Assembly (NCBI GenBank): GCA_050261575.1
Contig: JBLNDL010000012.1
Span: forward strand, 1-41,445
Direction: 5' to 3'
DNA length: 41,445 nucleotides
Source of the DNA: Sphingomonadaceae bacterium
Lineage (GTDB): Bacteria > Chloroflexota > UBA6077
The notes below the pieces were generated by a model, which was not told the origin of the DNA, did not search any database, and saw only the letters and a list, made by a program, of their open reading frames with translations. Below, in pieces: positions 12,500 to 35,429 of this stretch. Both the position numbers and the translations under genes were made by a program. How positions within the stretch are numbered: the first letter of the stretch is position 1; every line of letters begins with the position of its first letter.

Positions 12500-14041
12500 C
12501 TAGCTCTTGCCGCGCAGGTAGGCAGACAACGCTCGCGCGTAGGAGGCCGCCAGGGCGCCGAAGCGGGAGTAGTCCTCGGCGAAGATCTGCAGGGCCGAGC
12601 GTTGGGCTTCGCGGTATCTGCCGTCCGCCCCGAACTCCGAGAGAGCGTCCATCAGCAGGGCCAACTGCGCGTTTTCGACCAGGTTCCATTGGCGGTTGGT
12701 GAGGGCTGCGAGAGCGTCTCGCTCCGCCCGGATGTCGCAGAAGCCCCCCGGCACGCCCTGATAGTCCCGCAGGATCACCTCCGCCAGCGTCGTCGCCTGC
12801 TCGAGCATGCTGACGTCGCCCACCACGTCGTAGCCTTTCGACAGAGCGATGGCCACCCACACCTGATCGCGGAGCAGGTGCGGGCCTTCGGCGCGGCCGT
12901 CCCGGTACCGGAAGACGCCGTCGGTGGGGTCGGTCATCTCCCGCCAGAGGAAGCCGAGCACCTCTGCTCCAGTGCGCAGGTGGGCCGGGTCGCCGAGCGT
13001 CTCGAAGGCCAGCAGGTAGGCGATGGCGGCCTTGGCGTTCCCCTCGGCGAAGACCGTTCGATCCACTGGGGGCGGCTGAGCCTTCCGGCGGGCGTCCGCG
13101 TCCAGCTCGTAGTAGCCGGGATCCGCCGCCTGACTGCCCCCGAAGGTCGGGGTGTCGGGGTTTCGCAGGGTGGAGCCCATGTAGGCCAGGGTCCGCTCGG
13201 CCACGTCGCGGTAGACGGGGTTGCGGGTGGCCTCGTAGGCCTCCAGGTACAGCCTCAGCAGGTCGGCGTTGACGTCCAGCAGCTTCTCGGTGTGAACATC
13301 GGTCCAGTCGCGCCGGTCGGCGGAGTGGAAGAAGCCGCCCTCTGCGGGGTCGGAGAGCCTGGAGGCCAGCGCGTCCAGGGAGCGAACTGCAATCTCCTTC
13401 CAGCCTTCTCCATCAGGCCGCGTCGACAGCTCCAGGGCCAGCCGCACCGCCTCGCTATGGGGGAACTTGGGCTGGTCACCGAATCCGCCGTAGAGGGGGT
13501 CGTGCAGGCCGCGGACATAGCGCGCGACCCTCTCCAGTAGCTCGGGGTTGGGTTGCCCGGCGGGCTCGCCGACGCACAGGAGGGACTGCTGGCGGCGGAT
13601 CTCCATGTTGGCGATCTCCCAACGAAGGTCCGCCTGGTTATCCTGATACCAAAGGCTGACACGATCGAGGAGCGCCGCCATCTCCGCAGGTGGGATGAAG
13701 CCGCCGGAGGTGAGCAGCTCCCCCGTGGAAGCGAGCAGCGCGGTGGTGGGCCACCCCCCCAGGGTGTATCGGTCGAAGACGTCGGGCCTTCGATCGGCGT
13801 CGACCCGGACTGCCACGTAGCCGGTGTTGACCCTGTCGATCACCTGGGGATCGGAGTAGGTCGTCTCGTCCATGCGGTGGCACTCGTCGCACCACCACGT
13901 AGTGAGTGCCAAGAGAACGGGCTTGCCCTCTCGCTGCGCCGTTCGAAATGCCTCGCGACCCCAGGGGTGCCATCGGATCTCCCGAGCCCGGTTGGGTCTG
14001 GGGGAGAAGGGCAGCCGCTCCCTCACAGTGGTCCTCGCCAT
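12500..14041 (-). CDS. DUF255/YyaL thioredoxin-domain protein with alpha/alpha-toroid domain
   Basis: IRWHPWG.EAF, WWCDECHRM, RVDADRRPD, GGWPTT, GGFG.QPKFP and EKLL. GGAGG RBS. Confidence 0.85.
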   Translation of the reverse strand: MARTTVRERLPFSPRPNRAREIRWHPWGREAFRTAQREGKPVLLALTTWWCDECHRMDETTYSDPQVIDRVNTGYVAVRVDADRRPDVFDRYTLGGWPTTALLASTGELLTSGGFIPPAEMAALLDRVSLWYQDNQADLRWEIANMEIRRQQSLLCVGEPAGQPNPELLERVARYVRGLHDPLYGGFGDQPKFPHSEAVRLALELSTRPDGEGWKEIAVRSLDALASRLSDPAEGGFFHSADRRDWTDVHTEKLLDVNADLLRLYLEAYEATRNPVYRDVAERTLAYMGSTLRNPDTPTFGGSQAADPGYYELDADARRKAQPPPVDRTVFAEGNAKAAIAYLLAFETLGDPAHLRTGAEVLGFLWREMTDPTDGVFRYRDGRAEGPHLLRDQVWVAIALSKGYDVVGDVSMLEQATTLAEVILRDYQGVPGGFCDIRAERDALAALTNRQWNLVENAQLALLMDALSEFGADGRYREAQRSALQIFAEDYSRFGALAASYARALSAYLRGKS

Positions 14042-14170
14042 GTGCCACCTCCGAAGCGCTGATGAGGTGGAGCGTCGGGCAATACCTGGGCCACAACTGG
14101 ACACTGGGTGGGGATGGGGTATAATACTGCGAGTGGGTAGACCCTTTACGACCTGCACAGGAGGAGATAG

Positions 14171-14515
14171 ATGTCCAAAGGTTCCCGCGGTGGGGCGCGG
14201 CTCGCGGCCGGCAAGAAGAAGACGAAAAGAAGGGTGGAGCCGCAGCCGATAGCTCAGGTGCCGCGCTCGACGGCGACGCCGGAGCCTGTGCAGCCGAAGG
14301 TGGACGGCTCGGGCCAGGATTCCGGCGGGACCGTTCTGCGGTTCAGGCCTCGGGCCAAGGAAGCCGCGGTTGCGCGGCCTGCCGCGGGCAGGGGAGCCAG
14401 GACCGTCTTGGAGGCCGTGGACTACGGCTACGTCTATGCCGACTTGAGGGTAATCGGCGGTCTATCGGCAGCCCTGTTCGGCGGACTGGTAGCCCTCTCC
14501 TTGGTGCTCCGATAA
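14171..14515 (+). CDS. Hypothetical protein, basic N-terminus and one C-terminal TM helix
   Basis: GGAGGAG RBS, upstream TGGACA-N16-TATAAT (14098-14125), and C-terminal DYGYVYADLR followed by a hydrophobic helix. Confidence 0.7.
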   Translation: MSKGSRGGARLAAGKKKTKRRVEPQPIAQVPRSTATPEPVQPKVDGSGQDSGGTVLRFRPRAKEAAVARPAAGRGARTVLEAVDYGYVYADLRVIGGLSAALFGGLVALSLVLR

Positions 14516-14573
14516 CGGCTCCGACCGGGGGTGGGGGCTTTTCTGCTCGCGCTTCCGGAAAGGGACTGCCTAG

Positions 14574-15209
14574 CTAGGCTATTCCGCTCCCGGACTGGCC
14601 GGCGCTGTCCAACCGATCCTCTCGCTCGCTCGTCGCCAAGGGCGGGGCTGGAGGCAGGGGCGACACGCCGGAGGTGCCGGGGGCTTTCTTTTCCCTCGTC
14701 TTATTCCGGCCCGAGCTTCCGCCGGGCTCGACCGGAATCAACGGCGCCCAGCTACCCGGCGCGGATGCGACTGGGGTTGGGGCGTCGGTGCACTGCTCCT
14801 GGGCGGCCTTTCGACGTCGCCGCTTGCGGGTTGCCACCATGTGGGCGACGAGATCGAGCAGTTCCTGGATCTGGAAGGGCTTGCGCAGGCAGGAGGTGTT
14901 CTTCTGGCGCAGCTCGGCGGTGACGTGGCGAAGGTCGCCGTAGTATGCGGAGCAGATGAGCACTGGGAGGTGGTGGGTGCGGGGGTTGTAGCGGAGCGCC
15001 TGGATGAGGTCGAGGCCGTTCATTCCCGGCATCATCAGGTCGATGATGGCGGCGTCCGGCGGGTGGCTCAGGGCGGTCTTGAGGGCCGTTTGGCCGGAGT
15101 CGCAGGTCTGGACCTGGTATCCCTCGCCCTCGAGAAGGATGCGCACCAACTCCAGGATGGAACTGTCGTCGTCCACCACCAGGATGCGGGTTTTCACTGG
15201 TTTCTCCAA
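14574..15209 (-). CDS. Response regulator receiver protein with low-complexity C-terminal tail
   Basis: RILVVDDD, IDLMMPGMNG, CSA and KPF. Start uncertain (TTG 15209 or a GTG a few codons downstream). Confidence 0.8.
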   Translation of the reverse strand: MEKPVKTRILVVDDDSSILELVRILLEGEGYQVQTCDSGQTALKTALSHPPDAAIIDLMMPGMNGLDLIQALRYNPRTHHLPVLICSAYYGDLRHVTAELRQKNTSCLRKPFQIQELLDLVAHMVATRKRRRRKAAQEQCTDAPTPVASAPGSWAPLIPVEPGGSSGRNKTREKKAPGTSGVSPLPPAPPLATSEREDRLDSAGQSGSGIA

Positions 15210-15330: not shown

Positions 15331-15426
15331 GGAGGCGGACGGGCCCCGGTGGGCCTCGCGGTCTTCAAAACCGTCTGCGGGGCGGTAATCGCCGTCCCGG
15401 GTGGGTTCGACTCCCATGCGCCTCCG
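15331..15426 (+). tRNA. selC: tRNA-Sec (anticodon UCA)
   Basis: Acceptor GGAGGCG/CGCCTCC, 6-bp D stem GGGCCC/GGGCCT, anticodon loop CTTCAAA, long variable arm, T arm GTGGG-TTCGACT-CCCAT and discriminator G. CCA is not encoded. Confidence 0.95.
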
Positions 15427-15427
15427 C
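15363..15427 (+). repeat. att core repeat, left copy (inside intact tRNA-Sec)
   Basis: CTTCAAAACCG...GCGCCTCCGC, identical to 26534-26598. Begins exactly at the anticodon loop. Confidence 0.95.
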
Positions 15428-15496
15428 CTACTGCCGCCTAAGATTTTAGGCGGCTTTATCATGTGGAGCATGGTCGGCGAAGTCCGCGAGTGGCCG

Positions 15497-15517
15497 GCTG
15501 CAAACATTTTGCTAACA
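15497..15517 (+). repeat. Putative integrase arm-type sites, left end
   Basis: GCTGCAAACATTTTGCTAACA matches GCTGCAAACATTCTGCTAACA at 26397-26417 (20/21). Confidence 0.65.
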
Positions 15518-15522
15518 TTTCC

Positions 15523-16686
15523 TCACAGATGGCCGTTTCCGGCGGCCCGGAGCAGGTTGTCGAGCTTCGCGGCGGCCTCCTCCTGCATCGTGGGCAAGAC
15601 GTGCGAGTAGGTGTCCAGCGTGATCCCGATAGCCGAGTGTCCCAGCCTCTCGCTGACGATCTTCGGATGGACGCCCTGGGCCAGCAGCATCGTGGCGTGG
15701 CTGTGCCTCAAGTCGTGGAACCGCACATGCGGCAGCCCGGCCTTCTCCAACAGTAGCGGCCAATCGCTGCTCAGCCGGTAAGCTGCCGGTGCGCCGTGAT
15801 CGAGGGCGCATACGAGGCCGTGATCCTGGTAGGCTGGTCCGAACTGCAGGCGATGCTCTGTCTGCTGCACCCTATGCCGCCGCAGTGCCTCCACCGCGAA
15901 GCCCGGCAGCACCACCACCCGGCGGCTTCGGGCCGTCTTGGGCTCTTTGAAGGATAGCCCGGCCTTGGTCTGCTCCAGGGACCGGCACACAGACAGGGCG
16001 CCGGCGTCGAGGTCCACGTCCTGCCACCGCAACGCCAGTATCTCCCCACGGCGCATGCCGGTGGCAACGGCGAGCAGGATGGGGATGTACAGGGGTGTCC
16101 CCTTGGCCGTCTCCAGCAGCCGATCCACCTGTTCCGCCGTGAGTACCCGCATCTCCTTCCTGGCCGGCCGTGGGGGCTCTACGGCGTCGGCCGGGTTGCG
16201 CGGGATGATCTGCCACTTCACAGCTTGGCCCAACGCTTCCTTCAGGACCCTGTGATGATGCAGGACCGTGGTGGGCGAGAGGTTGCCCGGGCGCTTATCC
16301 AGCCGGCCGTTCTGGAGAGCCCTGGAGTAGTATTCCTGAACGTGGAGGGGCTGGAGCTTGGAGATCGGATAGCTCCCCAGGTTCGGGATTAGGTGCTTCC
16401 TGACGATCCCCTCGTAGCGCTCGCAGGTCTTGGCCGCGACGTTCGGCTTGGCGTAGTCGGCAAGCCACCGCTCCAGGTACTTGCCAACGGTGAGCTTGCC
16501 GGGCTCGATGTAGGTTCCGCCGGCGAGATCGGCCAGCAGCTTCGCCAGCTCCTGCTGTGCCTGCCTCTTGCCGGTGGCCGTGAGCTTGTGCCACTTCTGG
16601 CGGCGCTTGCCCGTCTCTGGATCCCGGCCAACGTCCACCACGGCCCACCAGTTGCCCTTGCCGCGTTCACGAAGATGGCCTTTCAT
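15523..16686 (-). CDS. int: Tyrosine recombinase/integrase (ICEBs1-like, with N-terminal arm-binding and SAM-like domains)
   Basis: TGMRRGEILAL (R), PKT (K), FHDLRHSHAT (HxxR), RLGH and TLDTYSH (Y). AGGAG RBS before ATG 16686. Confidence 0.95.
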   Translation of the reverse strand: MKGHLRERGKGNWWAVVDVGRDPETGKRRQKWHKLTATGKRQAQQELAKLLADLAGGTYIEPGKLTVGKYLERWLADYAKPNVAAKTCERYEGIVRKHLIPNLGSYPISKLQPLHVQEYYSRALQNGRLDKRPGNLSPTTVLHHHRVLKEALGQAVKWQIIPRNPADAVEPPRPARKEMRVLTAEQVDRLLETAKGTPLYIPILLAVATGMRRGEILALRWQDVDLDAGALSVCRSLEQTKAGLSFKEPKTARSRRVVVLPGFAVEALRRHRVQQTEHRLQFGPAYQDHGLVCALDHGAPAAYRLSSDWPLLLEKAGLPHVRFHDLRHSHATMLLAQGVHPKIVSERLGHSAIGITLDTYSHVLPTMQEEAAAKLDNLLRAAGNGHL

Positions 16687-17299
16687 CGGCTGGTTCTCCT
16701 TCCTGCTGCAACTTGCGCTGTCGCCTTGACTCGCGGATAGCCTCGGCCACGCTTGGGGTGAGGACCCCTTCTTCCTCTGCCACATCAATGCTGGTCCAGA
16801 TGGGCAGGGGCTCCGGCGGCACCACTCCCGGATGGAGCATCTTCCACTCGAAGAGACGCCATGATTGGGCTGCCCTGGGGAGATCGGAGACTTCGACGGC
16901 GGCCATCTGGCGGGCAGTGCGCAGCCGATCCTTGGGCGCCATGTCTGGAGCAGCCAGGAAGAGGCGCCAGTACCATTTTGCCGTGCGGACCGTCGGCCGA
17001 CTTTCCTCGCCAGTCATGCGGATTGCCTCAAATACTGCCGGTGCTGCCTCCCAAGGAAGCTCGGGCGTGCCGAACGACTCCGGCCAGTAGACTAGGCGAT
17101 ATTGCCGACGCTCGTGCTCGGGGGCTTCCCGTTGGATCTTCGCATAGGTGCGAACGGTCTTCTCCGATGGAGGATCGTTGCGCCCTAAGCGTTTTGCCTC
17201 CGCCTTTAGCATCGCTGTGACCGTAGTGCTTCCCCCCCCCTGCTCTGTCAGTGTCCTGATTCGGTCAATCCAGTACCCATCAATCCTCGACCTGGCCAC
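16667..17299 (-). CDS. Hypothetical protein, possible element repressor
   Basis: GGAGG RBS, overlaps the int start, has an N-terminal HTH-like PPSEKTVRTY segment and occupies the repressor position. Confidence 0.6.
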   Translation of the reverse strand: MARSRIDGYWIDRIRTLTEQGGGSTTVTAMLKAEAKRLGRNDPPSEKTVRTYAKIQREAPEHERRQYRLVYWPESFGTPELPWEAAPAVFEAIRMTGEESRPTVRTAKWYWRLFLAAPDMAPKDRLRTARQMAAVEVSDLPRAAQSWRLFEWKMLHPGVVPPEPLPIWTSIDVAEEEGVLTPSVAEAIRESRRQRKLQQEGEPADERPSS

Positions 17300-17316
17300 T
17301 GCCTACCTCCAATCTA

Positions 17317-17412
17317 CCGTTTTACCCGTTTTTACGGGCTGGACGGGGAGTCCGCCTCCCGCTATGCTGCATGGTACAGGCTGGTAGTGGTTGTGTCAAG
17401 CCCGTTTACCGG
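17317..17412. promoter_or_regulatory. Divergent control region with overlapping promoters and operator-like repeats
   Basis: Minus strand TTGACA(17399-17394)-N17-TACCAT(17376-17371). Plus strand TGGACG(17340-17345)-N17-TATGCT(17363-17368). CCGTTT(T)AC-like motifs at 17317, 17325 and 17401. Confidence 0.6.
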
Positions 17413-17427
17413 AAAGGAGTTGGGACT

Positions 17428-17634
17428 ATGGTGATAGATCGAAAGACTGTGACGGTTGAGGAGGCGGCTCGTGCTTTGGGCATCTCCAGGAATGGCGCCT
17501 ACAACGCAGCTAGGAGAGGCGAAATTCCCGCGATCCGCATCGGGAAGCGCTTCGTAGTGCCCAAGGCTGCCCTGGAGCGGCTTCTTGGCGCGCCCATCGG
17601 CGGCGGCGGCGACCGGCCAGGCGAGGCGGCGTAG
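17428..17634 (+). CDS. Excisionase-like HTH_17 protein
   Basis: TVEEAARALGISRNGAYNAARRGEIPAIRIGKRFVVP. AAGGAG RBS. Confidence 0.85.
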   Translation: MVIDRKTVTVEEAARALGISRNGAYNAARRGEIPAIRIGKRFVVPKAALERLLGAPIGGGGDRPGEAA

Positions 17635-17635
17635 G

Positions 17636-20185
17636 ATGGCGGCGCCGATCCCGCTCCCTGCCGTCGAGACGATCCCTGCGGAACTGCGTCAGTGTGCCCA
17701 GTGGGTGGCGTGGGACTTCAACGCCAAAGGCGACAAGGTTCCCATTAACTCCAGGACGGGGAAACTGGCGAGCGTGAGTGACCCCTCGACGTGGGGCAAC
17801 TTCGGGACGGCCTACCGCTATGCCCAGAAGCACAACTGCGGAATCGGGTTCGTCTTCACGGAGCAAGACCCCTACTGCGGCGTGGACCTGGACGATTGCC
17901 GCGATCCAGCGAGGGGGACCATGACGGTCGAGACCTGGGAACGCATCGCGGCGCTGGACAGCTACAGCGAGGTATCCCCGAGCGGTACCGGCGTCAAGAT
18001 CTTCCTGAAGGCCAAGCCCGACCGGAACTACAACGCAAGCGAGACGAGGGGCATTGAGGTCTACGCTTGGGGGCGGTTCTTCACGGTGACGGGCCAGCAT
18101 GTCCAGGGGACTCCTGACACCATCGAACAGCGCCAGGCCGAGGTTGACGCGTTGATTGCCGAGGTCTTCGGTTCCAACGGCCATACCGCCGCCCCGATCC
18201 CGGGCAAGATCCCCCAGGGGCAGCGGAACAGTACGCTCACAAGCCTTGCCGGCTCGTTGCGTCGGCGGGGGCTGAGTGAGGACGTGATCGAGCGGGCCCT
18301 GCTCGCGGTGAACGCGGCCCAGTGCGAGCCGCCTTTGGACGACAACGAGGTGAGGAAGATTGCCGGGAGCATTGGCCGCAAACTGGCTCCCGACCCCGCC
18401 GAGGGGGAGCTATCACGGGACTATGCCCACGCGGCGGTACTGGCCAAACTGTTCATGGACCGCTATCGGTGGGGTGCCGATCGCGGCTCCTGGATGACCT
18501 ACGACGGGCGGAGGTGGGTGCCAGCAACCGAGGAAGAGGTCACCAAGGAGGCGTCGGATGCCCTTCGGCGGGAGTATGCGGCGGCGTTGGCGGCTGCCAA
18601 GGACAAGGCCGCGATCCAGGAGCTTTCCAAGAAGGTCGCCGAGACCTGCGTCTTCGCAAGGATCCAGGGCGCGTTGAACTTCCTGAAGGGCTGGCCGGGC
18701 ATCCTAACGGCGCTCGACGAGCACAGGAGGAGCCCATGGGACCGCGACCCCTGGTTGCTGAACTGTGCCAATGGGACGCTGGATCTGCGGAACTGCACCC
18801 TGCGACCCCACGACCCCGCCGACCTGTGCACCAAGCTGGCGCCGGTGAACTACGACCCGAACGCCAGGAGCGAGCGTTGGGAAGCCCACCTGCGGACATG
18901 CCTTCCCGACCCCGAGGTGAGACGCGAGGTCCAGCGTAACGTGGGTGTCTCGCTGACTGGCGCCAACCTGGAGGAGGTCTTGCCCATCTGGCATGGCGCC
19001 GGCGGCAACGGCCGGAGCACCACGATACGAGCGATCCAGGGGTGTCTCGGGGACTACGCGCAGATGGCCGCCCCCAGGTTGCTGATTGCGGGGAAGTACG
19101 AACGGCACCCCGCCGAACTGGCCGATCTTTGCGGGGCCCGGGTTGTCTTCGCCGTGGAGATCGGCGCCACCGCGAGGCTCGATGAAGAGCGAGTCAAGAT
19201 GCTGACCGGCGGCGACACGATCAAGGGCCGCTTCATGGGGCAGAACTTCTTCGAATTCCCCCGAACCTGGACGATCACCTTGGTATGCAACCACCGCCCC
19301 ACCATTGCCGACAGCAGCCACGGCATGTGGCGGCGGGTGCGGCTGATCCCCTGGACCGCCACCGTCCCCAGGGGGCAACAACGACCCCAGGAAGAGGTGG
19401 TGCAGGAGCTCTTGGCTGATGCCCCCGCTATCCTCGCTTGGATGGTGGCGGGGCTCCGTGACTGGCAGGCCGACCACCGGTGGGTAGCCGGGGCCGTGTT
19501 GGCCGCAACCGACGAGTACCGGCGCGATCAGGACGTTCTCTCGGGGTTCCTCGCCGAATGCTGCAAGATGGGACCGCGATATGAGGTGGCGAAGGCCGAT
19601 GTGTACGACGCCTATACCAAGTGGTGCGCGACGAACGACGAAGCCCCTCTCTCCAAGCGGGAATTGACTATCAGGTTGCGAGATCGCGGCATTGGGGAGA
19701 AGAAGGCCGATAAGGGGGAGCGCCGCTACACCGGCTTTCGGCTGCTCACGGACGAGGAGAAGCAGCAGGTGGCACTAGGTGGCACATGTTCCAATAGCTC
19801 TCGCGAAAGCGAAAATTCTATAGAGGACCTGGAATCAGTGCCACCTAGTGCCACCTATCCCGAAAAGGCCGCCGAACAGCCGCCCGAGCCGCCTAACGGG
19901 CACGGAGACCCCCCGCCGGCGGGCATCCCGCAGATGATCACGCGGGCGATGGAGTCTCAACTCCGTGGCATGGGCTACTCGCAGCGACAGATCGACCGCC
20001 TCACCCCTCTTGGGGCGATGGCGATCCTTCGCGGTGACGGGCCGCCCGAGTGTGGCTGCCCGACCTGTGGCGGTACCGAGTACTGGTACCGTCCCCACCC
20101 GACGGGGATCGAGGGCACCTGGGAGTGCTCCGTGTGTGTGCCGAAGGATGCGGCCGCGCCGGAGCCGATGGAGGTGGAGCTATGA
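17636..20185 (+). CDS. Primase (AEP-like) + PriCT + D5_N + SF3 helicase, P4-family replication protein with C-terminal Zn finger
   Basis: GVDLDDC, YSEVSPSGTG, GQRNSTL, LLNCANGTLDL, Walker A GAGGNGRST, LTGGDTIKGR, WRRVRLIPW and C-terminal CPTC...WECSVC. Confidence 0.9.
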   Translation: MAAPIPLPAVETIPAELRQCAQWVAWDFNAKGDKVPINSRTGKLASVSDPSTWGNFGTAYRYAQKHNCGIGFVFTEQDPYCGVDLDDCRDPARGTMTVETWERIAALDSYSEVSPSGTGVKIFLKAKPDRNYNASETRGIEVYAWGRFFTVTGQHVQGTPDTIEQRQAEVDALIAEVFGSNGHTAAPIPGKIPQGQRNSTLTSLAGSLRRRGLSEDVIERALLAVNAAQCEPPLDDNEVRKIAGSIGRKLAPDPAEGELSRDYAHAAVLAKLFMDRYRWGADRGSWMTYDGRRWVPATEEEVTKEASDALRREYAAALAAAKDKAAIQELSKKVAETCVFARIQGALNFLKGWPGILTALDEHRRSPWDRDPWLLNCANGTLDLRNCTLRPHDPADLCTKLAPVNYDPNARSERWEAHLRTCLPDPEVRREVQRNVGVSLTGANLEEVLPIWHGAGGNGRSTTIRAIQGCLGDYAQMAAPRLLIAGKYERHPAELADLCGARVVFAVEIGATARLDEERVKMLTGGDTIKGRFMGQNFFEFPRTWTITLVCNHRPTIADSSHGMWRRVRLIPWTATVPRGQQRPQEEVVQELLADAPAILAWMVAGLRDWQADHRWVAGAVLAATDEYRRDQDVLSGFLAECCKMGPRYEVAKADVYDAYTKWCATNDEAPLSKRELTIRLRDRGIGEKKADKGERRYTGFRLLTDEEKQQVALGGTCSNSSRESENSIEDLESVPPSATYPEKAAEQPPEPPNGHGDPPPAGIPQMITRAMESQLRGMGYSQRQIDRLTPLGAMAILRGDGPPECGCPTCGGTEYWYRPHPTGIEGTWECSVCVPKDAAAPEPMEVEL
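19767..19856. repeat. Putative replication origin: inverted iteron pairs around an AT-richer core
   Basis: AGGTGGCACTAGGTGGCAC (19767-19785) and its exact reverse complement (19838-19856). Confidence 0.65.
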
Positions 20186-20652
20186 ACCCGACCGTGATCG
20201 AGTTGGTAGCCGACCTGTCGCGCCGTGGGCTGATCCTGGAGGTAGCCGGCAACAAGCTGAAGATTCGAGGGCCACGTCCTTTGCTCACACCCAACGTTCT
20301 GGAGGTTCTGCGTGAGCACAAGCCGGAGATCGTGCGGTTGCTCAGCCAGAAGGAGGGGACAGATGGACGCAACGCTGCTGTTGATGCTGCTGTGTCTGGC
20401 CCAGGCGCCCAGCCTGTGGCTCAGCCGCCCCAACCGCTAGATCCCGAGGTGGCGTGGCGCGTCGAGATCATGCGACCCCAGGTTCCCAGGACCGGCCCGA
20501 TCCCGTTCCTTGTGGCGCGAGACGTGGCGCCGCAGCCGGATTGCTGTCTCAGTTGCGGCGATCCGCTGCCCGAGGGGAGGCACTACCGGTGCGCGCCCTG
20601 CCAGCGGGCGGTGGAGATCGTTCTGAACGAAGTCAGAGAGGGGGTGAGATAG
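20182..20652 (+). CDS. Hypothetical protein, TubC_N-like N-terminus and C-terminal Zn finger
   Basis: LSRRGLILEV.GNKLKIRGP...LREHKPEI..LL and CLSC...CAPC. ATGA overlap with the primase stop. Confidence 0.65.
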   Translation: MNPTVIELVADLSRRGLILEVAGNKLKIRGPRPLLTPNVLEVLREHKPEIVRLLSQKEGTDGRNAAVDAAVSGPGAQPVAQPPQPLDPEVAWRVEIMRPQVPRTGPIPFLVARDVAPQPDCCLSCGDPLPEGRHYRCAPCQRAVEIVLNEVREGVR

Positions 20653-20858
20653 TGCCAAGAGACGGTGAGCTTCGCGAAGGGCTCCAGGCGATAGCGCATG
20701 CCATCAAGTTGCTCGGCAACGCCGACGCGGCCACCCCGATGGGCGGGCTGGAGGCGCTGGGGAAGGTGATCTTGGAGAGCAACGGGGCAATAGCTGACGC
20801 CATCAGCGAGCTGGCCGAGGCCGTCAACAATGTGGCCGACGCCATTGCTAATCGCTGA
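20652..20858 (+). CDS. Hypothetical small helical/coiled-coil protein
   Basis: GTG overlaps the previous stop, GAGGGG RBS, heptad-like AIADAISELAEAVNNVADAI. Confidence 0.55.
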   Translation: MPRDGELREGLQAIAHAIKLLGNADAATPMGGLEALGKVILESNGAIADAISELAEAVNNVADAIANR

Positions 20859-20902
20859 GAGGCGCCGGGTTAACACGGTGATAAGTGAAGGGAGAAAGCG
20901 AC

Positions 20903-21490
20903 ATGGCATTTCAGGACAAAGCGGCAGAAGTGGCCCGACTCCGGCGAGCATACGATGCCCGAGTGTCGGAGATTCGGGCAGACAAGACCCTTTCGGCGAT
21001 GGGCCAGCAGCAGTTAATCCGCAAGGCATTCGAGGAAACCAATGATGCCATTGCGAAGCTGCGCCGCGAGTATGAGGCCGAGCGGGAGCAAGAGCGGCGG
21101 GAGCTCCAGCGACGGGCGTTCGGCGTGCCCCACTTCAACCCGGCAACGCCAGCGGAGAGGGCACAGGTGGCCGAGGGCTACCGAGCGGCAATTGACCGCG
21201 CCGAGCGGGCCAAAGACCCCGCCCAAGCCTTGACCCTGTTGCAACGGTCCGACTGGACCGGCGACACGCACCTAGGGCGGGCCGTGGCCCTGGTGGCGGC
21301 TGAGAAGGGCTGGCATGGTGTTCTGACCGAGGCCGTGAACCTGGGCATGGCCGACCATGACGCGGTGAGCGAGCTTCAGGCGCACATCATGGGCGACTCG
21401 TCGCCGGCGAGGTTCAACCGGCGTGTTGCCCTGTCCGGCCCGATGCGCCCGCCAGAGCTAGACCGGCCATTACCACCGGAGGCGGCATAG
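20903..21490 (+). CDS. Hypothetical all-helical protein
   Basis: GGGAG RBS before ATG 20903, predicted coiled coil, abuts the terS-like gene. Confidence 0.65.
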   Translation: MAFQDKAAEVARLRRAYDARVSEIRADKTLSAMGQQQLIRKAFEETNDAIAKLRREYEAEREQERRELQRRAFGVPHFNPATPAERAQVAEGYRAAIDRAERAKDPAQALTLLQRSDWTGDTHLGRAVALVAAEKGWHGVLTEAVNLGMADHDAVSELQAHIMGDSSPARFNRRVALSGPMRPPELDRPLPPEAA

Positions 21491-21988
21491 GTGCCCAGGA
21501 CCTGCACGGTCTGCCAACACCCTCAGCGAGGGGACATAGAGGCGGCATTGCTGGCCCAGGGGTCGTTGCGGACCATAGCGGACCGATGGTCCGTTTCCAA
21601 GACGGCCCTGATACGCCATCGCGACGACCATCTGCCGGCGGCTCTGGTTCAGGCCAAGGCTGCCGGCGAGGTGGCCCGGGCGGATGACTTGCTGGGCCAG
21701 GTTCAGGGATTGCAGACCAAGGCGCTGGACCTGCTGCGGAAGGCTGAGGCGGACGGTGACTACAGGACGGCCCTAGCCGGCATTCGTGAGGCGCGCGGCT
21801 GCCTGGAGTTGCTGGCCGAGCTAACCCAGCAGCTTGACCGGCGGCCCCAGGTGAACATCCTTCTTGCCCCCGAGTGGCTGGCGGTGCGTTTCGCTCTGCT
21901 GGCGGCCCTGCACCCCTATCCCGAGGCTAGGGCGGCGGTGGCATCGCGGCTTCTTGAACTGGAGGCTGGCGATGGGCATGGCGCGTGA
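21491..21988 (+). CDS. Putative terminase small subunit (Zn-binding CxxC + HTH)
   Basis: MPRTCTVCQHP, HTH SLRTIADRWSVSKTALIRH and a helical C-terminal region. Lies directly upstream of the TerL ATPase. Confidence 0.6.
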   Translation: MPRTCTVCQHPQRGDIEAALLAQGSLRTIADRWSVSKTALIRHRDDHLPAALVQAKAAGEVARADDLLGQVQGLQTKALDLLRKAEADGDYRTALAGIREARGCLELLAELTQQLDRRPQVNILLAPEWLAVRFALLAALHPYPEARAAVASRLLELEAGDGHGA

Positions 21989-22730
21989 CCTGGCCCGGGC
22001 CTTGGACCCCGTGCTGCTGGCGAAGGACGTCGGTCTGGAGTGCGACCCGTGGCAGGCTGAGCTACTGCGCTCTTCGGACCCCAGGGTACTACTGAACTGC
22101 TGTCGACAGAGTGGCAAGAGCACGATGGCGGCAATCCTGGCCCTGCACACGGCGCTATACCGGCCCGGTAGCCTGGTGCTGCTGCTGAGCCCTGCCCTAC
22201 GGCAATCGCAGGAGCTTTTCCGTAAGGTGCTTGCGGTCTACCGGGCCCTGGCGCAAAGCGTGCCAGCGGAGACCGAGACGAAGCTAACTCTTGAGCTTGA
22301 GGGCGGTTCCCGCATCGTCTCTTTGCCTGGCAAGGAAAGCACCATCCGGGGTTTCTCAGCGGTGCGGCTGCTGATTGTAGACGAAGCGGCCCGGGTGCCC
22401 GATGAACTGTACTACTCGGTGCGCCCGATGCTGGCCGTTTCGGGCGGCCGTTTGGTGGCCGTGAGTACGCCCTTTGGAACCCGGGGCTGGTGGTACGAGG
22501 CGTGGCGGTCCGCTGACCCGTGGCTTCGGTTCGAGGTGCCAGCCACGGAATGCCCGCGCATCTCGGCTGCCTTCCTGGAGGAAGAACGGCGCAACCTGGG
22601 CCAGTGGTGGTATCGACAGGAGTTCTGCTGCGCGTTCTTGGATGCCGAGTCGGCGGCTTTCCGGTCTGAAGATATCGAAGCGGCATTCACAACGGAGGTT
22701 GAAACATGGGAGCTGTTAGCATCGGCGTAG
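21972..22730 (+). CDS. Terminase large subunit, ATPase domain only
   Basis: DPWQ adenine-binding motif, Walker A CRQSGKST, Walker B LLIVDEA, motif III VSTP and YRQEFCCAF. The ORF ends before the nuclease domain. Confidence 0.85.
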   Translation: MGMARDLARALDPVLLAKDVGLECDPWQAELLRSSDPRVLLNCCRQSGKSTMAAILALHTALYRPGSLVLLLSPALRQSQELFRKVLAVYRALAQSVPAETETKLTLELEGGSRIVSLPGKESTIRGFSAVRLLIVDEAARVPDELYYSVRPMLAVSGGRLVAVSTPFGTRGWWYEAWRSADPWLRFEVPATECPRISAAFLEEERRNLGQWWYRQEFCCAFLDAESAAFRSEDIEAAFTTEVETWELLASA

Positions 22731-23359
22731 ACATAGGCCAGCAGAGGGACCCCACGGCGTTAGCGGTGGTGGAGCGACAGGACCGCTCCCGCTGGGCGCT
22801 CCCGCGTAGTGAACGGGTGGTGGAGCCCCGCGATATTCGGCTGGTGAGCGACCCGGTTTACGTTGCCCGAGAGATAGGCCGGCTTTCCTTGGGAACACCA
22901 TACCCCGAGGTGGCAGAGGCAATCCGGAGGGTTGTGGACGGCATTCGCCTTCGGTACAAGGGCGCCTTGGAGGTACGCATAGACTCAACGGGCGTCGGTG
23001 CTCCGGTGGTAGACCTGGTGCGTGCTCAGGTGAAGGCGGTTCCCTACGTCGAGGTGCTGGCCGTGAGCTTCACCCACGGAGACCGTTTCGAGCGGAAGGG
23101 CAGCAAGGAGGCGACCTTGGGCAAGGCGTACCTGGTGAGCCGGCTCCAGGCACTGCTACAGACCCGCAGCCTGAAACTGCCGCGAACGTCTGAGACGGAG
23201 GCGCTGGAGCAGGAGCTTAAGACTTACGAGATAAAGGTGTCGGAGAACGGCAACGATACCTACGGCGCCTTCAGGGTGGGCACCCACGACGATCTGGTGA
23301 CAGCCCTGGGGTTGGCAGTGTTGCCCCTGGGCCCGAGCCGCCGGCTGGTGACGTTCTAA
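22706..23359 (+). CDS. Terminase large subunit, RNase H-like nuclease domain as a separate gene
   Basis: IGVDIG...DPTA, IDSTGVG and HDDLVTALGLA acidic triad. Has its own GGAGG RBS (22694-22698) and ATG. Confidence 0.8.
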   Translation: MGAVSIGVDIGQQRDPTALAVVERQDRSRWALPRSERVVEPRDIRLVSDPVYVAREIGRLSLGTPYPEVAEAIRRVVDGIRLRYKGALEVRIDSTGVGAPVVDLVRAQVKAVPYVEVLAVSFTHGDRFERKGSKEATLGKAYLVSRLQALLQTRSLKLPRTSETEALEQELKTYEIKVSENGNDTYGAFRVGTHDDLVTALGLAVLPLGPSRRLVTF

Positions 23360-23361
23360 TC

Positions 23362-23593
23362 ATGGCCGCCGTGCGCTGCCCCCAGTGTCGCAACACCTTG
23401 GGCGAGCTGGTAGCTGGCTGCTGGGTGATGCACCACGATGGGCGCGAGTTGGTGATGAGGGTCGATAGCCTGGTATCGGTGCGCTGTGAAAGATGCCATC
23501 TGGTGTGGACGGCGGACCGGAAGGGCATCGAGCATCTGCTGCAGGGGGACTGTGGGCATTCTGAGAGGCTGCTGCACGGCCGGCCGGCTAGTT
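23362..23593 (+). CDS. Small Com-like zinc-ribbon protein
   Basis: VRCPQC...VRCERC, starting 2 nt after the nuclease gene stop. Confidence 0.55.
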
Positions 23594-23816
23594 GACAGCG
23601 GTGGTACAATCAAGCTGTCCAGGGGTCGTTGAGGCAGGTTTGTTGATTCAACCGAATAGCCGCCGATAGTGGCCCGGGCATCTGCTCCGACCTGCCGCGA
23701 CCCCTGGACAAGGCGCGACTCTCGGGTAGATGCCCGGGCCAGTGTCGTTTCAAAGAGAACCGCCGACCCTGATGCAAGCAGGACCGGCGGCAGCAGCACA
23801 GGAAAGGAGTCTTCCT

Positions 23817-24524
23817 ATGCCACGGGACGATTCTACCACCTCCAGGCCCTGCGCGGCCCAACACCCCACGGACAGGCTGAAGCGACGTCCGCAGTTCAGG
23901 GAGAAGCCCGACTGGAAGCACGACGAGCTGGCCCGCAAGCTGGATGTTGCCGAGCTGATGAGCAGGCCGGCTGTTGTTCCGATCCGCGCCAGCTTCAGCA
24001 GGCCTGAACTCGACCCCTGGCCGACCTACTGGGGCCACAACGCTCGCCGTGGCCGCACGCTCTCATCGGCGGAATCCGTCGGGGATGCCTGGGCTACGAA
24101 GCAGCACATTGTCCCCTCTGCGAGACCTGCACCACCGACCTCTCGCGTACCCATCACTGGCGTAATGGTGCCGAAGGATCTGTCCGATATCACCCATCTC
24201 ATGGCTAAGGTGTTCCGCCACGAGGCCGGCGTTGCGGACCTCCAGCGATGGTACAAGCTCCTGGCGGAGATTCCGCACCTTCGGGAGATGTGGGAGAAGC
24301 TGGACAAGGAGCAGCAACCACCGAGACCGGGGAGGGACGGCACGACAACCGCTGGTCGGCCGCAGCCCGAAGGGTCTTCTCGATCAAGCCCGAAGGAACT
24401 CCGTGCGGCCGCCCTGGGCGCCATGCTCGGCCTCATGACGGATGAGACTTACCAGACATGGCGGGTTCTGTTGACCCAGAACCCAGAGCTGCGACGGTGC
24501 CTGCTGGAGAGCTTCGACATCTGA
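23817..24524 (+). CDS. Hypothetical protein (start uncertain)
   Basis: AAGGAG RBS before ATG 23817. The C-terminal half has two similar W..LL...P.LR helical segments. Confidence 0.45.
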   Translation: MPRDDSTTSRPCAAQHPTDRLKRRPQFREKPDWKHDELARKLDVAELMSRPAVVPIRASFSRPELDPWPTYWGHNARRGRTLSSAESVGDAWATKQHIVPSARPAPPTSRVPITGVMVPKDLSDITHLMAKVFRHEAGVADLQRWYKLLAEIPHLREMWEKLDKEQQPPRPGRDGTTTAGRPQPEGSSRSSPKELRAAALGAMLGLMTDETYQTWRVLLTQNPELRRCLLESFDI

Positions 24525-24605
24525 CCGGGGCTTGCGCTGATGGTTGGCGCCGGTGAACAGCCGCCAGCGCCCCTTAGACAAACAAGCCTACAAGGAGGTA
24601 CCACA

Positions 24606-24980
24606 ATGCCACATCCTCAATCGCCCCCGAACGATTGCGCGCTCGCCGACTGGCAAGCTCTTGAGGAGGTCATCACGAATGCCGAGCGGCTGCACCGCCA
24701 ATACCTTGAGGCCGTGCTGCTCGTTCAGCACGCCGCAGGTCGCTACGTTCGGAACGAACTCCGTCGTCTGCACCAGAAGCCACGTCAGGGTAGCAGCAAG
24801 CTCGCCTACCGGATCTCCGAGGTCGCCAAACTAACGGGCATCAGCGAGGCGAGCGTCGCCCGGGCAATCGAGCGGGGAGAACTACGGGCCGTGAAGCTAA
24901 ACAGCACCACCGACACGAGCGCACGGCTCATCCTGGCCGGAGACCTGGAGCGCTGGTTGTTGTCATTGCCAGAGCGGTAG
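24606..24980 (+). CDS. HTH_17/excisionase-like DNA-binding protein
   Basis: AYRISEVAKLTGISEASVARAIERGELRAVK...DLERWL. AAGGAGG RBS. Confidence 0.75.
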   Translation: MPHPQSPPNDCALADWQALEEVITNAERLHRQYLEAVLLVQHAAGRYVRNELRRLHQKPRQGSSKLAYRISEVAKLTGISEASVARAIERGELRAVKLNSTTDTSARLILAGDLERWLLSLPER

Positions 24981-25026
24981 GAGCAGAGCAACCGGCATCG
25001 GTGGGCAACTGCCGGCGGCCTCGCCC

Positions 25027-25761
25027 TTGCCTGCTCGTCAGCCCGAGGATGTGCAGCGGACGATGATGGGGCCGGCGAAGTGTGCCGCTTGGAAAGCCGG
25101 TGCTTTCGACCTGAGGGACCTGGTGGGGCGGACGCGGGACCCCAGATGGGGGACGATGCGCGCGGAGCGGAGCCTGAAGGACCTGCTGGGCGACAAGGCC
25201 GCTGAGTACCTGGACCCGGTGCGGCGGGAGGCAGCGATCAAGGCGGCGGCAACCAGGGCGGCATCTGGAGGTGGTGGGAGCGGGAAGGGCGGCAGGCCGA
25301 CTGTGACGGGTGGTGGCGCCGGTGGTCCAGGGAACAGCGAGTGGCGAAGGCAACTCCGGCTTGCACAATTGGAGAAGATGGAAGACTCGGCTTTCGTCAG
25401 CGAGGTGCGGGAGCACCAGGCGGCGACATGGGGTCAACAAGGTCTTTCGGGTCATTATCGGCGACACGCTGCTGATGTTGCGCGTTGGACTGGGCGAGAG
25501 ATAACGGAGCAGGAATACGCCGCGTTTGCCAAAGACATAATGGTTCGACCGGATAGGGTGTTTACCGGCCTGACAACGGAAGAGCATCTGGAGTACAGCT
25601 TCGTCCGATCTCGGGAAGACAGACGTGCTATAATGCTTACTGTCTCCAGGCGGGGACTTGTGAGAACCATGTACCCGACTCCTATTGAGCGTTGGTTGAA
25701 GCGACACCTTGAGCAGGTGGAGGTGACAGATCGTGTCAGAAGACTTGGCCTTGGCCTTTGA
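25027..25761 (+). CDS. Putative polymorphic toxin: C-terminal remnant of a MuF/SPP1-gp7-like minor head protein fused to a nuclease-like domain, probably 5'-truncated
   Basis: ARQPEDVQRTMMGPAK..AWK.GAFDL.DLV...WG....RSL resembles the distal part of MuF head proteins. A Gly-rich linker leads to LSGHYRRHA...ITEQEY..FA...RT, which resembles HxxxH RNase toxin domains. Confidence 0.5.
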   Translation: MPARQPEDVQRTMMGPAKCAAWKAGAFDLRDLVGRTRDPRWGTMRAERSLKDLLGDKAAEYLDPVRREAAIKAAATRAASGGGGSGKGGRPTVTGGGAGGPGNSEWRRQLRLAQLEKMEDSAFVSEVREHQAATWGQQGLSGHYRRHAADVARWTGREITEQEYAAFAKDIMVRPDRVFTGLTTEEHLEYSFVRSREDRRAIMLTVSRRGLVRTMYPTPIERWLKRHLEQVEVTDRVRRLGLGL

Positions 25762-26056
25762 TCTGTATTCCATCATGACGAGTAAGCTTCACCTGTACCA
25801 GGACTGGCTGGAGGTCGAGAATATCCTGCTCTGGCGAGACGAGATCGACGATGCTTTGCAGGCAGGCATGTCCTTGACGGATGAGCAGATGGCCACGCTG
25901 AGAAAGGCTGACGATCTCTTGTTGGCGCAGCGTGATCGACTGGTCCGAGAGTTCCCGCAGGCTTTCGAGAACACAGAGCATATTAGCGCTCGGCAGTGGT
26001 GGTGGCACCTGGACAAAGGTCCCCAGGTGCGCGAGGAAGCTGAGAGAGCTGCTTGA
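25733..26056 (+). CDS. Putative immunity protein
   Basis: Small, acidic and helical, with a WWWHLD motif. GGAGG RBS and overlap with the toxin 3' end. Confidence 0.5.
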   Translation: MSEDLALAFDLYSIMTSKLHLYQDWLEVENILLWRDEIDDALQAGMSLTDEQMATLRKADDLLLAQRDRLVREFPQAFENTEHISARQWWWHLDKGPQVREEAERAA

Positions 26057-26069
26057 AAGGAGCTGTCTG

Positions 26070-26332
26070 ATGCCTCGAATCCGCTTCCTGAAGCTGACCT
26101 GTGGTCATTGCGGAGTCGACTACAAGGTGCGGCTGGAGAAGGTGGCAGACAGAATGCCCTTCGAATGCCTTGCCTGTGGGGCCAGTATTGAGACGGCCCA
26201 GTATGCGGGGTGCTTGAACTGATCTACCAGTACACTGCTCTGGTGGTGAAGCTGGAAGGGGAATTCGCCCTGGAAGGAGATACGGCGGTGCCTCTGCCCA
26301 AGGAGCCAGGCAAGAAGCTGGTGACCTGGTAG
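26070..26332 (+). pseudogene. Zinc-ribbon protein with apparent 1-nt frameshift
   Basis: AAGGAG RBS and CGHC...CLAC. In-frame TGA at 26220, but one extra G in the G-run at 26207-26210 gives ...YAGVLELIYQYTALVVKLEGEF...VTW-stop at 26332. Confidence 0.5.
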
Positions 26333-26396
26333 CTCTTGACACAACCACTACGCTGATGTAGCCAGGCATCCTCGTTTCGAGCATGCGCTCGCTCTC

Positions 26397-26429
26397 GCTG
26401 CAAACATTCTGCTAACAAACGCGTTAGCA
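26397..26429 (+). repeat. Putative integrase arm-type sites, right end
   Basis: TGCAAACA, TGCTAACA and inverted GTTAGCA. Same motif pair as 15497-15517. Confidence 0.65.
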
Positions 26430-26452
26430 CCAACCGGCACAGGATGCACATA

Positions 26453-26494
26453 ATGGCCCGTTCAGGTGTAGAAGTGCCGTACTGAACGGGCCAT
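26453..26494. repeat. 13-bp inverted repeat near the right att site
   Basis: ATGGCCCGTTCAG-N16-CTGAACGGGCCAT. Confidence 0.6.
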
Positions 26495-26533
26495 CTTGTA
26501 CTATGTGGTATACTTAGGACGCTGATTCTCGAA

Positions 26534-26598
26534 CTTCAAAACCGTCTGCGGGGCGGTAATCGCCGTCCCGGGTGGGTTCGACTCCCATGCGCCTCCGC
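26534..26598 (+). repeat. att core repeat, right copy (3' tRNA-Sec fragment)
   Basis: 65-bp exact duplicate of 15363-15427. Confidence 0.95.
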
Positions 26599-34887: not shown

Positions 34888-34898
34888 CGGTCGTTTCC

Positions 34899-35363: not shown

Positions 35364-35429
35364 GATGCAGCCTCCGAACTTGCAAGTACCTGGCACGAAC
35401 GACGCCACCCGTGACCTCGGATCGCGTCG

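Follow-up and report, generated by a model that had tools for sequence, protein, structure and literature searches.

We analysed a stretch of 41,445 nucleotides (hereafter the window; contig JBLNDL010000012.1 of the Chloroflexota assembly GCA_050261575.1) that carries, at positions 15363-26598, an element of 11,236 bp which is inserted in a tRNA-Sec gene and encodes both activities of a phage large terminase (TerL) with no recognisable head or tail genes. The integration target, a tRNA-Sec (anticodon tca) on the forward strand at 15331-15428, is the only tRNA found by ARAGORN in the whole window, and its match to the Rfam model RF01852 scores 73.5 bits against a gathering score of 47. The 3' part of this gene forms attL. 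A direct repeat of 72 nt (15356-15427 and 26527-26598) is 96% identical, and because its three mismatches are all confined to the first 7 nt, it leaves a perfect att core of 65 nt, with attL at 15363-15427 and attR, which repeats part of the tRNA-Sec 3' end, at 26534-26598. A 21-nt repeat is found on the forward strand about 70-130 bp inside each end (15497-15517 near attL; 26397-26417 near attR, with one mismatch); two matches were reached in none of 100 shuffled sequences, and the copies are candidate arm-type sites of the integrase. Perfect att repeats and matching arm-like sites at both ends had been part of the original prediction, made from the letters alone, and both are borne out.

Sixteen open reading frames (ORFs) of the element were compared with Pfam, PHROGs and NCBIfam. 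The ATPase half of the large terminase (21972-22730, forward strand) matches phrog_7579 (9.6e-68) and PF03237 (Terminase_6N, 31.4 bits against a cut-off of 22) and carries a Walker A motif (RQSGKST), a Walker B motif (VDEA) and an STP coupling motif. In an alignment of 52 ATPase sequences, G48 of Walker A is invariant and K49, S50 and T51 are at least 90% conserved; D137/E138 of Walker B and the motif S165-T166-P167 are conserved as well. The nuclease half (22706-23359, forward strand), RNase H-like, overlaps the ATPase gene by 25 nt in a different frame and matches phrog_27743 (6.8e-21) and PF17289 (Terminase_6C, 26.8 bits against a cut-off of 22.6). In the nuclease alignment (17 sequences), conservation reaches at least 90% for D9 in the GVDxGQ strand, and D195 (HDDLV) and T95 and G96 of the TGVG motif are invariant. 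By profile, the two halves resemble solved TerL domains in the PDB, the first the ATPase domain of a phage terminase large subunit (4zni, 1e-15) and also T4 gp17, the second 5m1q (2.7e-10), 5m1f and 5tge, all at about 3e-10. Judged by these motifs and matches both halves are typical and look intact, in agreement with the prediction that both TerL activities are encoded.

The TerL of the Caudoviricetes holds both domains on one polypeptide, whereas here they are found in separate ORFs, in the window and in 39 of 46 related loci from cellular genomes. The junction between the two genes varies among loci from overlap to gap, the nuclease gene precedes the ATPase gene in two of them (L025, L032), and an 84-aa ORF lies between the two genes in a third (L076); as far as gene arrangement can tell, the split is real. 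A search of 1.84 billion representative proteins with the ATPase profile returned 22,801 proteins at E<=0.001 and 2,441 at E<=1e-30, and among the best 150 of these 2,441 proteins 121 are shorter than 350 aa, 6 have 350-389 aa and 23 have at least 390 aa. We also observed that eight relatives from Acidobacteriota and Myxococcota (L025, L026, L028, L029, L032, L034, L037, L043) encode two to five tandem nuclease paralogues beside a single ATPase gene (for example L029:9288-12712). These paralogues are 34-53% identical to the nuclease of the window and keep the catalytic Asp motifs, and in L025 and L032 one of them is located upstream of the ATPase gene.

Among the 16 ORFs no match to a portal, capsid, protease, scaffold, tail or lysis family was obtained, so that the portal, major capsid, protease or scaffold, tail and lysis genes of an intact temperate tailed prophage are all missing from the matches, as had been noted before for portal, protease, capsid and tail in the 11.2 kb. 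The right arm behind the nuclease gene encodes, all on the forward strand, a 77-aa Cys-rich (zinc-ribbon-like) protein with weak matches only (23362-23595; partial tblastn match in the relative L119), a 264-aa protein without family (orf264, 23730-24524) that is not conserved in relatives, a 146-aa protein with the second HTH_17 domain of the element (24540-24980; PF12728 3.2e-7, phrog_66), orf244 (25027-25761) and two small overlapping ORFs of 107 and 96 aa (25733-26222). None of the hypothetical proteins looks like a capsid or portal: the model of orf264 in the ESM Atlas has a pLDDT of 0.48 and a pTM of 0.25, hence no confident fold, and the Atlas search gave no usable relatives; orf201, described below, is all-helical; and orf244 is what remains of a MuF-family minor head protein gene. 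Residues 6-117 of orf244 are 59% identical to residues 300-411 of a 414-aa "phage minor head protein" with a PF04233 (MuF) domain, so that of MuF only the last ~112 residues survive, followed by a C-terminal part without assignment. Pfam gives no match to the PF04233 domain in orf244, the coding signal is weak (GC3 0.64), and the best ESM Atlas score is 0.84, with an EndoU_bacteria cluster at 0.82 that serves as a lead only. To judge from this alignment orf244 is a 5'-truncated stump of the 3' end of a MuF gene; the MuF-like remnant that had been suspected is real, and it indicates that the element descends from a phage.

Directly upstream of the ATPase gene, in the position of a small terminase (TerS), lies a gene for a 165-aa protein (fam2; 21491-21988, forward strand). 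Its architecture consists of a CxxCxH motif, a helix-turn-helix (HTH), a long helical hairpin and a conserved PEW...PYPEAR tail (30 of 52 cluster members aligned), and its model has a pLDDT of 91.1. The same slot is occupied by fam2 in phage-type contigs (L072, L075, L076, L086), while in 13 other loci it is filled by a small terminase family of PHROGs (phrog_4102 in nine loci and L019; phrog_4044 in three). In those 13 loci tblastn with the fam2 of the window found no match, and the families therefore look like alternatives for one role. A predicted complex of fam2 with the ATPase scored 0.41 against 0.00 for the best control, with the verdict "weak support"; of 157 solved complexes 116 reach that mark, as do 2 of 215 mismatched pairs, and at 0.60 or below the corresponding numbers are only 18 of the 157 and again both mismatched pairs. 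Agreement between the runs is at least 86% of contacts, and the partner pLDDT is at least 71. No match to fam2 was found in Pfam, PHROGs or NCBIfam, its profile retrieved from the PDB only designed helical proteins and weak HTH rows, and Foldseek against a viral library returned one uncharacterised protein (4.9e-4), with rows named TerS only at E>0.3. Of the proposed TerS-like gene it can thus be said that the ORF exists and defines a family; no library model matches it, and its role as TerS is deduced. In three acidobacterial or myxococcal elements ARAGORN additionally calls a candidate tRNA-Gly (L028:8756-8831, L029:8632-8707, L037:9322-9397) immediately ahead of the terminase genes; these calls overlap ORFs that belong to the fam2 cluster.

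Immediately before fam2 lies orf201 (20885-21490, forward strand), a conserved 201-aa protein modelled with eight helices (AF2, pLDDT 86.5), for which Foldseek found nothing in the PDB at E<=0.001. It has ten homologues of 49-100% identity and is syntenic in L119 and L120; a search for the family gave no match in the viral contigs and only two metagenome loci.

The remaining genes provide for integration, regulation and replication. Adjoining attL, a tyrosine integrase with an arm-binding domain is encoded on the reverse strand (15523-16788; PF00589, Phage_integrase, 7.4e-24; PF14659, SAM_3; PF14657, Arm-DNA-bind_4; phrog_1 1.7e-86); its ORF is drawn from the first start codon, and an internal Met near residue 35 may be the true start. 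Upstream of it on the same strand lies orf210 (16667-17299), a 210-aa protein without family at the place where a regulator or repressor would sit; Thermoleophilia relatives have unrelated ORFs of similar size at this position. A sigma-70-like promoter site, a consensus match only, points leftward at 17399-17371. The leftward pair orf210-int faces a rightward unit that starts with an excisionase-family HTH protein (Xis/AlpA-like; 17371-17634, forward strand; HTH_17 1e-13, phrog_66, TIGR01764 40.2 bits against a cut-off of 28.8) and continues with a primase-helicase, a TubC_N-like ORF, a 134-aa ORF, orf201, fam2, the ATPase and the nuclease. The primase-helicase (17585-20185, forward strand; 866 aa) combines PrimPol/PriCT-1 and D5_N domains and belongs to the P4 family (phrog_1829 1.9e-121; TIGR01613 247.8 bits, cut-off 108.7). 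Its ORF contains near the 3' end, at 19767-19856, an iteron-like array in which the 10-mer AGGTGGCACT occurs twice and then twice inverted, forming an inverted repeat with 27-nt arms that are 89% complementary, a candidate origin of replication by its structure. The TubC_N-like docking domain ORF with its C-terminal Cys-rich motif (20050-20652, forward strand; PF18563 1.6e-10) has counterparts after the primase in two relatives as well (tblastn, L018 and L029; the L018 ORF with a Pfam match). The intact integrase, the divergent switch and the primase-helicase with an origin-like repeat, all read from the letters originally, are thereby substantiated. No conjugation or mobilisation gene was found among the element's ORFs in Pfam, PHROGs or NCBIfam, and PADLOC, run on 13 ORFs, gave matches at the HTH level only and no defence system.

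Among 50,697 phage records the best matches were Thermus phage Riverbug (51%) and the Meiothermus phages MMP7 and MMP17 (50%), over 94-97% of the ATPase half, and the closest phage terminases altogether are 50-66% identical to the TerL of the window. In the Riverbug and Meiothermus phages TerL is one coding sequence of about 415 aa, whereas the window has two genes; and in Riverbug and MMP17 portal, MuF, protease and major head genes follow closely after the fused TerL, unlike in the window, where head genes are missing. Of 72,556 plasmids 11 matched, the best three being plasmids of Salinibacter ruber with 51-54% identity. One of them, pSR11 (NC_014026.1), is circular with 11,229 bp and encodes, in this order, a CopG protein, a P4-family primase, a 184-aa ORF, the ATPase (phrog_7579 4.3e-96, over the whole profile), the nuclease (phrog_27743 1.1e-118), three unassigned ORFs, a 628-aa tape-measure-like protein and ParA; the gene set of pSR14 (NZ_CP030359.1) is similar, and neither plasmid has an integrase or a capsid or portal match. 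They thus share with the window the P4-family primase, an ORF of 160-184 aa in the TerS slot and the split TerL (ATPase 52-54%), and differ from it as circular plasmids with ParA, a tape-measure-like protein of about 610-630 aa and no integrase. In the accessible part of the one paper found to name pSR11, the only remark is on a "terminase" carried by small plasmids (PMC6060240).

For a survey of the family, relatives were collected as loci (L-numbers) and genomes (G-numbers, G000 being the window's own). Of 101 related genomes 15, the window's own included, matched the ATPase, and the two close matches (G090, 66% identity; G019, 53%) both have the split form. A pattern scan with one genome per species led to the 46 genome loci, and IMG/VR to 43 viral loci, of which 22 with at least 47% identity were used for counts. 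All six-frame ORFs of at least 60 aa from the window, L018 and L020-L087 were compared by all-against-all BLASTP (5,439 ORFs, 464 conserved; L030, on the same contig as L018, was counted as L018 in the conservation score), and 86 further BLAST families were compared with PHROGs, each through one member of median length. Wide sharing is confined to four families, namely nuclease, ATPase, fam2 and tyrosine integrases. The others include a portal (F4, phrog_64), a major head protein (F12) and a scaffold (F14); F5 (phrog_4102) and F26 (phrog_4044) are small terminases, F6 is ParB-like, and further ones are primases, helicases and excisionases. The 46 genome loci all have the ATPase, 39 the nuclease, 34 a member of the fam2 cluster and 22 an integrase; the portal family F4 occurs in one of them and a capsid family in two (L053, L063), portals outside the att-delimited elements having been sought as BLAST families only. 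In the sole genome locus with a portal (L055) this gene lies 9 kb away on the other strand. The 22 viral loci, by comparison, have a nuclease in 17 cases, a member of the fam2 cluster in 11, an integrase in five, the portal family F4 in nine and a capsid family in eight. To judge by the neighbouring genes, the terminase precedes the portal in real phages and in cellular genomes sits mostly in other elements.

Relatives were delimited by searching downstream for the repeat of a tRNA located beside the integrase. Eight elements were obtained in this way: L035 (7,052 bp, tRNA-Arg), L036 (9,490 bp, tRNA-Met), L046 (9,056 bp, tRNA-Met), L038 (8,552 bp, tRNA-Arg), L062 (8,110 bp, tRNA-Ala), L063 (9,404 bp, tRNA-Ser), L039 (9,529 bp, tRNA-Lys) and, in Nitrobacter sp. 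Nb-311A, L056 (about 14.9 kb, tRNA-Lys, 46-bp repeat). No att repeats were found for L025, L028, L029, L042, L057, L087 and L031, and only 15-17-nt matches for L061 and L067. From the 105 ORFs called by a GC-frame caller in the first seven delimited elements, the 33 with at least 100 aa that were not already assigned were scanned, and further 35 ORFs from L056, L051, L061, L029, L025 and L057. They comprise replication initiators, primases, helicases, repressors and methyltransferases; matches of head or tail type were seen in L046 (one tail-fibre-like domain), in L063 (a capsid protein) and in L036, where a MuF fragment of 117 aa directly follows the nuclease gene. Among the scanned ORFs of the eight att-delimited, integrase-bearing relatives (7-15 kb) there was no portal. 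A search for elements of the same gene order without structural genes had been recommended; elements with terminase genes and an integrase, and with no portal among the scanned ORFs, exist in eight delimited cases, one of them (L063) with a capsid protein; in another (L062) the ATPase gene is broken into two pieces and the nuclease gene is missing. L063 (L063:2728-12131, from a metagenome-assembled genome (MAG) of Clostridiales) has an integrase, a repressor, a primase, a helicase and the terminase trio together with a major head protein of 278 aa (phrog_422, 2.4e-55), encoded right before fam2, and no portal, and is by gene content an intermediate between the capsid-less form and a phage. Two further loci may be mentioned here. 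L051:9211-14080 spans 4.9 kb between 67-bp repeats, one of them in a tRNA-Glu, and holds fam2, the ATPase, the nuclease and a 640-aa tail-spike-like protein without an integrase; in L018:6701-9676 (G090, Chloroflexota, ATPase 66%) a 991-aa tape measure protein (PF10145; phrog_1272 1e-28) is encoded upstream of the terminase genes, with no recognised head genes in the 20 kb read.

The nearest relative, the metagenome contig L120, has the order primase, orf201, fam2 (64%), ATPase (84%), nuclease (55%) and then, 460 bp after the nuclease gene, an integrase; in L021 (ATPase 71%) the integrase follows right after the nuclease gene, and in L020 (ATPase 70%) no ORF above 284 aa exists in the 5.2 kb downstream of the terminase. 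Close relatives are therefore not the full-length prophages whose discovery would have spoken against the original prediction. Between pairs of capsid-less elements, dN/dS (Nei-Gojobori; with dS near 1 the values are rough and the direction is clear) is 0.07-0.22 for the ATPase gene (eight pairs), 0.24-0.37 for the nuclease gene (four pairs, a fifth being saturated) and 0.28-0.39 for fam2 (five pairs). The terminase genes are hence under purifying selection in capsid-less lineages, which argues against plain decay. In a quick maximum-likelihood tree of 63 ATPase rows (L030, L058 and ORFs below 200 aa left out; deep branches weak), the rows that have an integrase and no structural genes cluster by host (six rows from Thermoleophilia, an Acidobacteriota/Myxococcota group, an alphaproteobacterial group and a Methanothrix-labelled set), next to a starred clade that comprises seven viral contigs with a portal; on starred branches the label has to change at least seven times. 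The ATPase of the window groups with rows from Chloroflexota MAGs.

Nine public sequencing runs hold part of the element, all of them metagenomes, with no RNA run among those listed. Contigs of four soil runs, three of which come from one study, were compared with the element. In these three runs, the flanking contigs stop inside attL (at 15374 or 15392) and start again inside attR (26534-26570), and word depth, a crude measure when taken per contig, is about half as high for the element as for the flanks (12-23 against 34-39, 5-8 against 14, and 4-6 against 8-9). In these runs the primase segment is a variant that differs by 49-50 changes within 17586-18333, and 18.5-20 kb is thinly covered; three of the four runs lack cover altogether in parts of the primase region, and the remainder of the element matches the soil contigs at 99% or more. 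Variants of the element differ by a swapped replication module (window 17586-20000 in the three soil runs). Taken together, the contigs are a weak hint that part of the population carries the element, and that it is mosaic and was recently mobile.

In the window's own genome both the ATPase protein and PF03237 match the element only, and PF03354, PF04860 and PF10145 have no match. Two other contigs of this genome carry head genes. C57 (100 kb; L117:1-12864) encodes a TerL of phrog_38, a Mu-type portal, a protease, a scaffold, a major head protein and, in the same module, a giant MuF-like protein of 1,522 aa. C4 (6.3 kb; L118) encodes a fused TerL ~26% identical to the halves of the element, a phrog_64 portal and a phrog_212 head protein, that is, the portal and head families of the portal-bearing viral contigs, but with 21-29% identity. 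A second incomplete phage-like element, with a capsid and without a terminase, was observed on C19 (L113:4062-14717), where a comM/ChlI-type gene is split (4062-4724 and 13800-14717) by an insert of ~9 kb. Within the insert are genes for a large serine recombinase, for a capsid protein of HK97 type (435 aa; PF05065 9.8e-36) and for a DNA methyltransferase; no terminase or portal match was obtained, and BREX genes (BrxL, PglZ) adjoin the insert. In the window itself, the G+C content rises to 0.73-0.75 at 34001-36000, compared with about 0.62-0.69 in the rest.

P4 is similar in size to the element, and P4-like satellites likewise have an integrase and a P4-family primase-helicase (TIGR01613). 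Their genes for capsid size and transactivation are sid, psu, delta and ash; no PHROG or Pfam match to Psu-, Sid-, Delta- or Ash-like genes was found in any ORF of the element, a search in which remote homologues could be missed. P4 uses the terminase of its helper on its own cos site, according to the accessible part of a review (PMC10690885), whereas the element encodes its own. Phage-inducible chromosomal islands (PICIs), including the SaPIs, are described in the sections available of the sources as islands of about 10-15 kb with an integrase at the end, divergent regulation, their own primase-replicase and TerS upstream of accessory genes. The element is similarly small, its integrase adjoins attL and it has its own primase with a candidate origin. 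PICIs, however, carry at most TerS or Rpp and use the TerL of the helper (PMC10690885, PMC10085698, both as partly accessible), while the element encodes both TerL domains and no recognisable capsid-remodelling genes, and the shared families are only a generic integrase, HTH and primase. The cf-PICIs and the Streptomyces satellites MulchRoom and MiniFlayer do encode terL and terS (PMC10085698, PMC10690885), as the element does with terL in two genes and terS assigned by position only; in the same partial texts they also have a major capsid protein, portal, protease, head-tail adaptors and usually an HNH gene, none of which was found in the element. VEIMEs, PICMIs, PLEs and the mycobacterial EPIPs are presented, in what could be accessed, as small capsid-less elements riding in helper capsids; TerS and "motor-like ATPases" occur in some VEIMEs (PMC9618062, in the accessible portion), EPIPs carry TerS and a tape measure (PMC12822802, likewise), which is paralleled in some relatives of the element, and reference PLEs use large serine recombinases (PMC9618062) where the element has a tyrosine recombinase. 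A set of TerS, TerL ATPase and TerL nuclease is not described for any of these in the texts available, supplementary gene tables apart, nor did we find in the literature, with the same restriction, a description of capsid-less satellites with TerS and a full TerL or of a split TerL. Capsid-less terminase elements are apparently a widespread, undescribed group.

Our preferred reading, to which we assign a probability of just under 60%, is that the element derives from a tailed phage and lives as a satellite of phages, or as a hitcher of similar kind, that brings its own terminase to the procapsids of a helper. To have kept integration, replication and the whole packaging enzyme and to have lost portal, head and tail genes would best explain the gene content, and the recurrence of the terminase in 46 genome loci from many phyla, and of the same reduced gene set in eight att-delimited elements, indicates that the element is not a lone wreck. 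That it represents a distinct satellite type, as first suggested, is with eight portal-less relatives and purifying selection a well-founded proposal and not a demonstration. A signal, most likely helper infection or induction, would cause Int and Xis to excise the element, the primase-helicase would replicate it from the iteron-like repeat, and the HTH protein fam2 would mark the element's own DNA. The two-piece TerL would then dock on the portal of helper-made procapsids, cut the satellite DNA and pump it in, with the helper supplying heads, tails and lysis. Since the terminase must fit the portal, helpers would be expected among phages with a related terminase, either of the type of the viral contigs, with a portal right after the nuclease gene, or among relatives of Riverbug and MMP17.

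A number of observations weigh against this reading. In nine viral contigs (L069, L072-L077, L079, L086) a portal follows directly after the nuclease gene, portals of types outside the BLAST families could have been missed in loci other than the att-delimited elements (a Mu-type portal in L066 was found by chance), and the boundary between the family and phages is blurred, some small relatives carrying a capsid protein (just upstream of fam2 in L063, L053 and L078) or a tape measure (the G090 locus, with tape-measure-like proteins in the Salinibacter plasmids), and several holding unassigned ORFs of 250-630 aa. The assignment of fam2 as small terminase, which draws on position, architecture and the weak complex score, is likely but unproven; Foldseek found nothing for it in the PDB at E<=0.001, and hhalign related it to the phrog_4102-type TerS family with 39% probability and over the HTH only. 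Excision, replication, packaging and the helper are all things that we infer from genes. The right arm (23.4-26.5 kb) is unconserved in relatives, partly weak in coding signal and holds a gene remnant, so the copy in the window could be inactive. No attP, circle or empty-attB joint was seen among the contig joints listed for the four soil runs, as is to be expected with a 65-bp repeat and contigs built from short words. As for helpers, C57 and C4 may be resident ones, but neither these nor C19, with its lone capsid gene, could be linked to the element, the TerL of C57 and C4 being different or ~26% identical.

The element might instead be a decaying prophage remnant in tRNA-Sec from which portal, head, tail and lysis genes were deleted, and which is inert and simply not yet eroded. 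Its 5'-truncated MuF gene and unconserved, weakly coding right arm fit this view, as do the related phages with portal and MuF right after TerL, broken relatives such as L062 and the lack of any direct sign of activity in the data examined. Against it stand the perfect 65-nt att cores, the intact integrase, primase and terminase ORFs and the same reduced set in eight elements of 7-15 kb from several phyla with different integrases, tRNA targets and replication genes; and with terminase genes under purifying selection between elements, closest relatives that end right after the nuclease gene and, as a weak point, an apparent polymorphism in a natural population, we find a remnant unlikely. The terminase trio could also do another job, such as resolving replication concatemers or sabotaging phage packaging as a defence, with the element spreading by some other route. 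The small circular ParA-bearing plasmids of Salinibacter ruber have the trio without an integrase, two to five tandem nuclease paralogues are odd for a plain packaging enzyme, and interference of satellites with helper packaging is known, as stated in the accessible part of PMC10690885. Such interference would be compatible with self-packaging, though, and neither a conjugation or mobilisation gene nor a defence-system match beyond HTH was found in the element; both halves are typical of TerL and closest to real phage terminases (50-66% identity), and the partner in the TerS position co-varies with them, which makes a purely non-packaging role rather improbable. Seven ORFs without family leave room, in principle, for a complete miniature virus with its capsid and portal among them, but the largest unassigned ones, of 264, 244, 210 and 201 aa, fall below the size of known portals, orf201 is built of helices only, the fold of orf264 is not confident, orf244 is the MuF remnant and the right-arm ORFs are unconserved in relatives; we see hardly any chance for it.

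If the element is indeed a satellite with its own packaging motor, it would add to what is known of this way of life. Known satellites either bring a small terminase or a cos site and use the motor of the helper, or build their own capsids, and a whole motor without a shell would be a third packaging strategy. One may go further and propose, tentatively, a new cross-phylum class of "terminase-only" satellites that steal finished procapsids by means of a two-piece TerL and their own recognition subunit, in which the split would make the motor modular and the tandem nucleases would serve as alternative adaptors that widen the range of helper portals. The hosts of the family comprise Chloroflexota, Actinomycetota, Acidobacteriota, Myxococcota, Pseudomonadota, Bacillota and Methanothrix-labelled MAGs, besides the Salinibacter plasmids, and we know of no satellite studied in the soil and sediment phyla that it reaches. 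TerL is widely used as a hallmark gene of phages, and under this reading it would mark many non-phage elements in genomes and viromes. Cultured carriers exist in Nitrobacter sp. Nb-311A, in the isolate Bradyrhizobium sp. JYMT SZCCT0428 and in the Salinibacter ruber strains M8 (pSR11) and SP38, and the naturally split TerL would offer a ready system for the cooperation of ATPase and nuclease on the portal.

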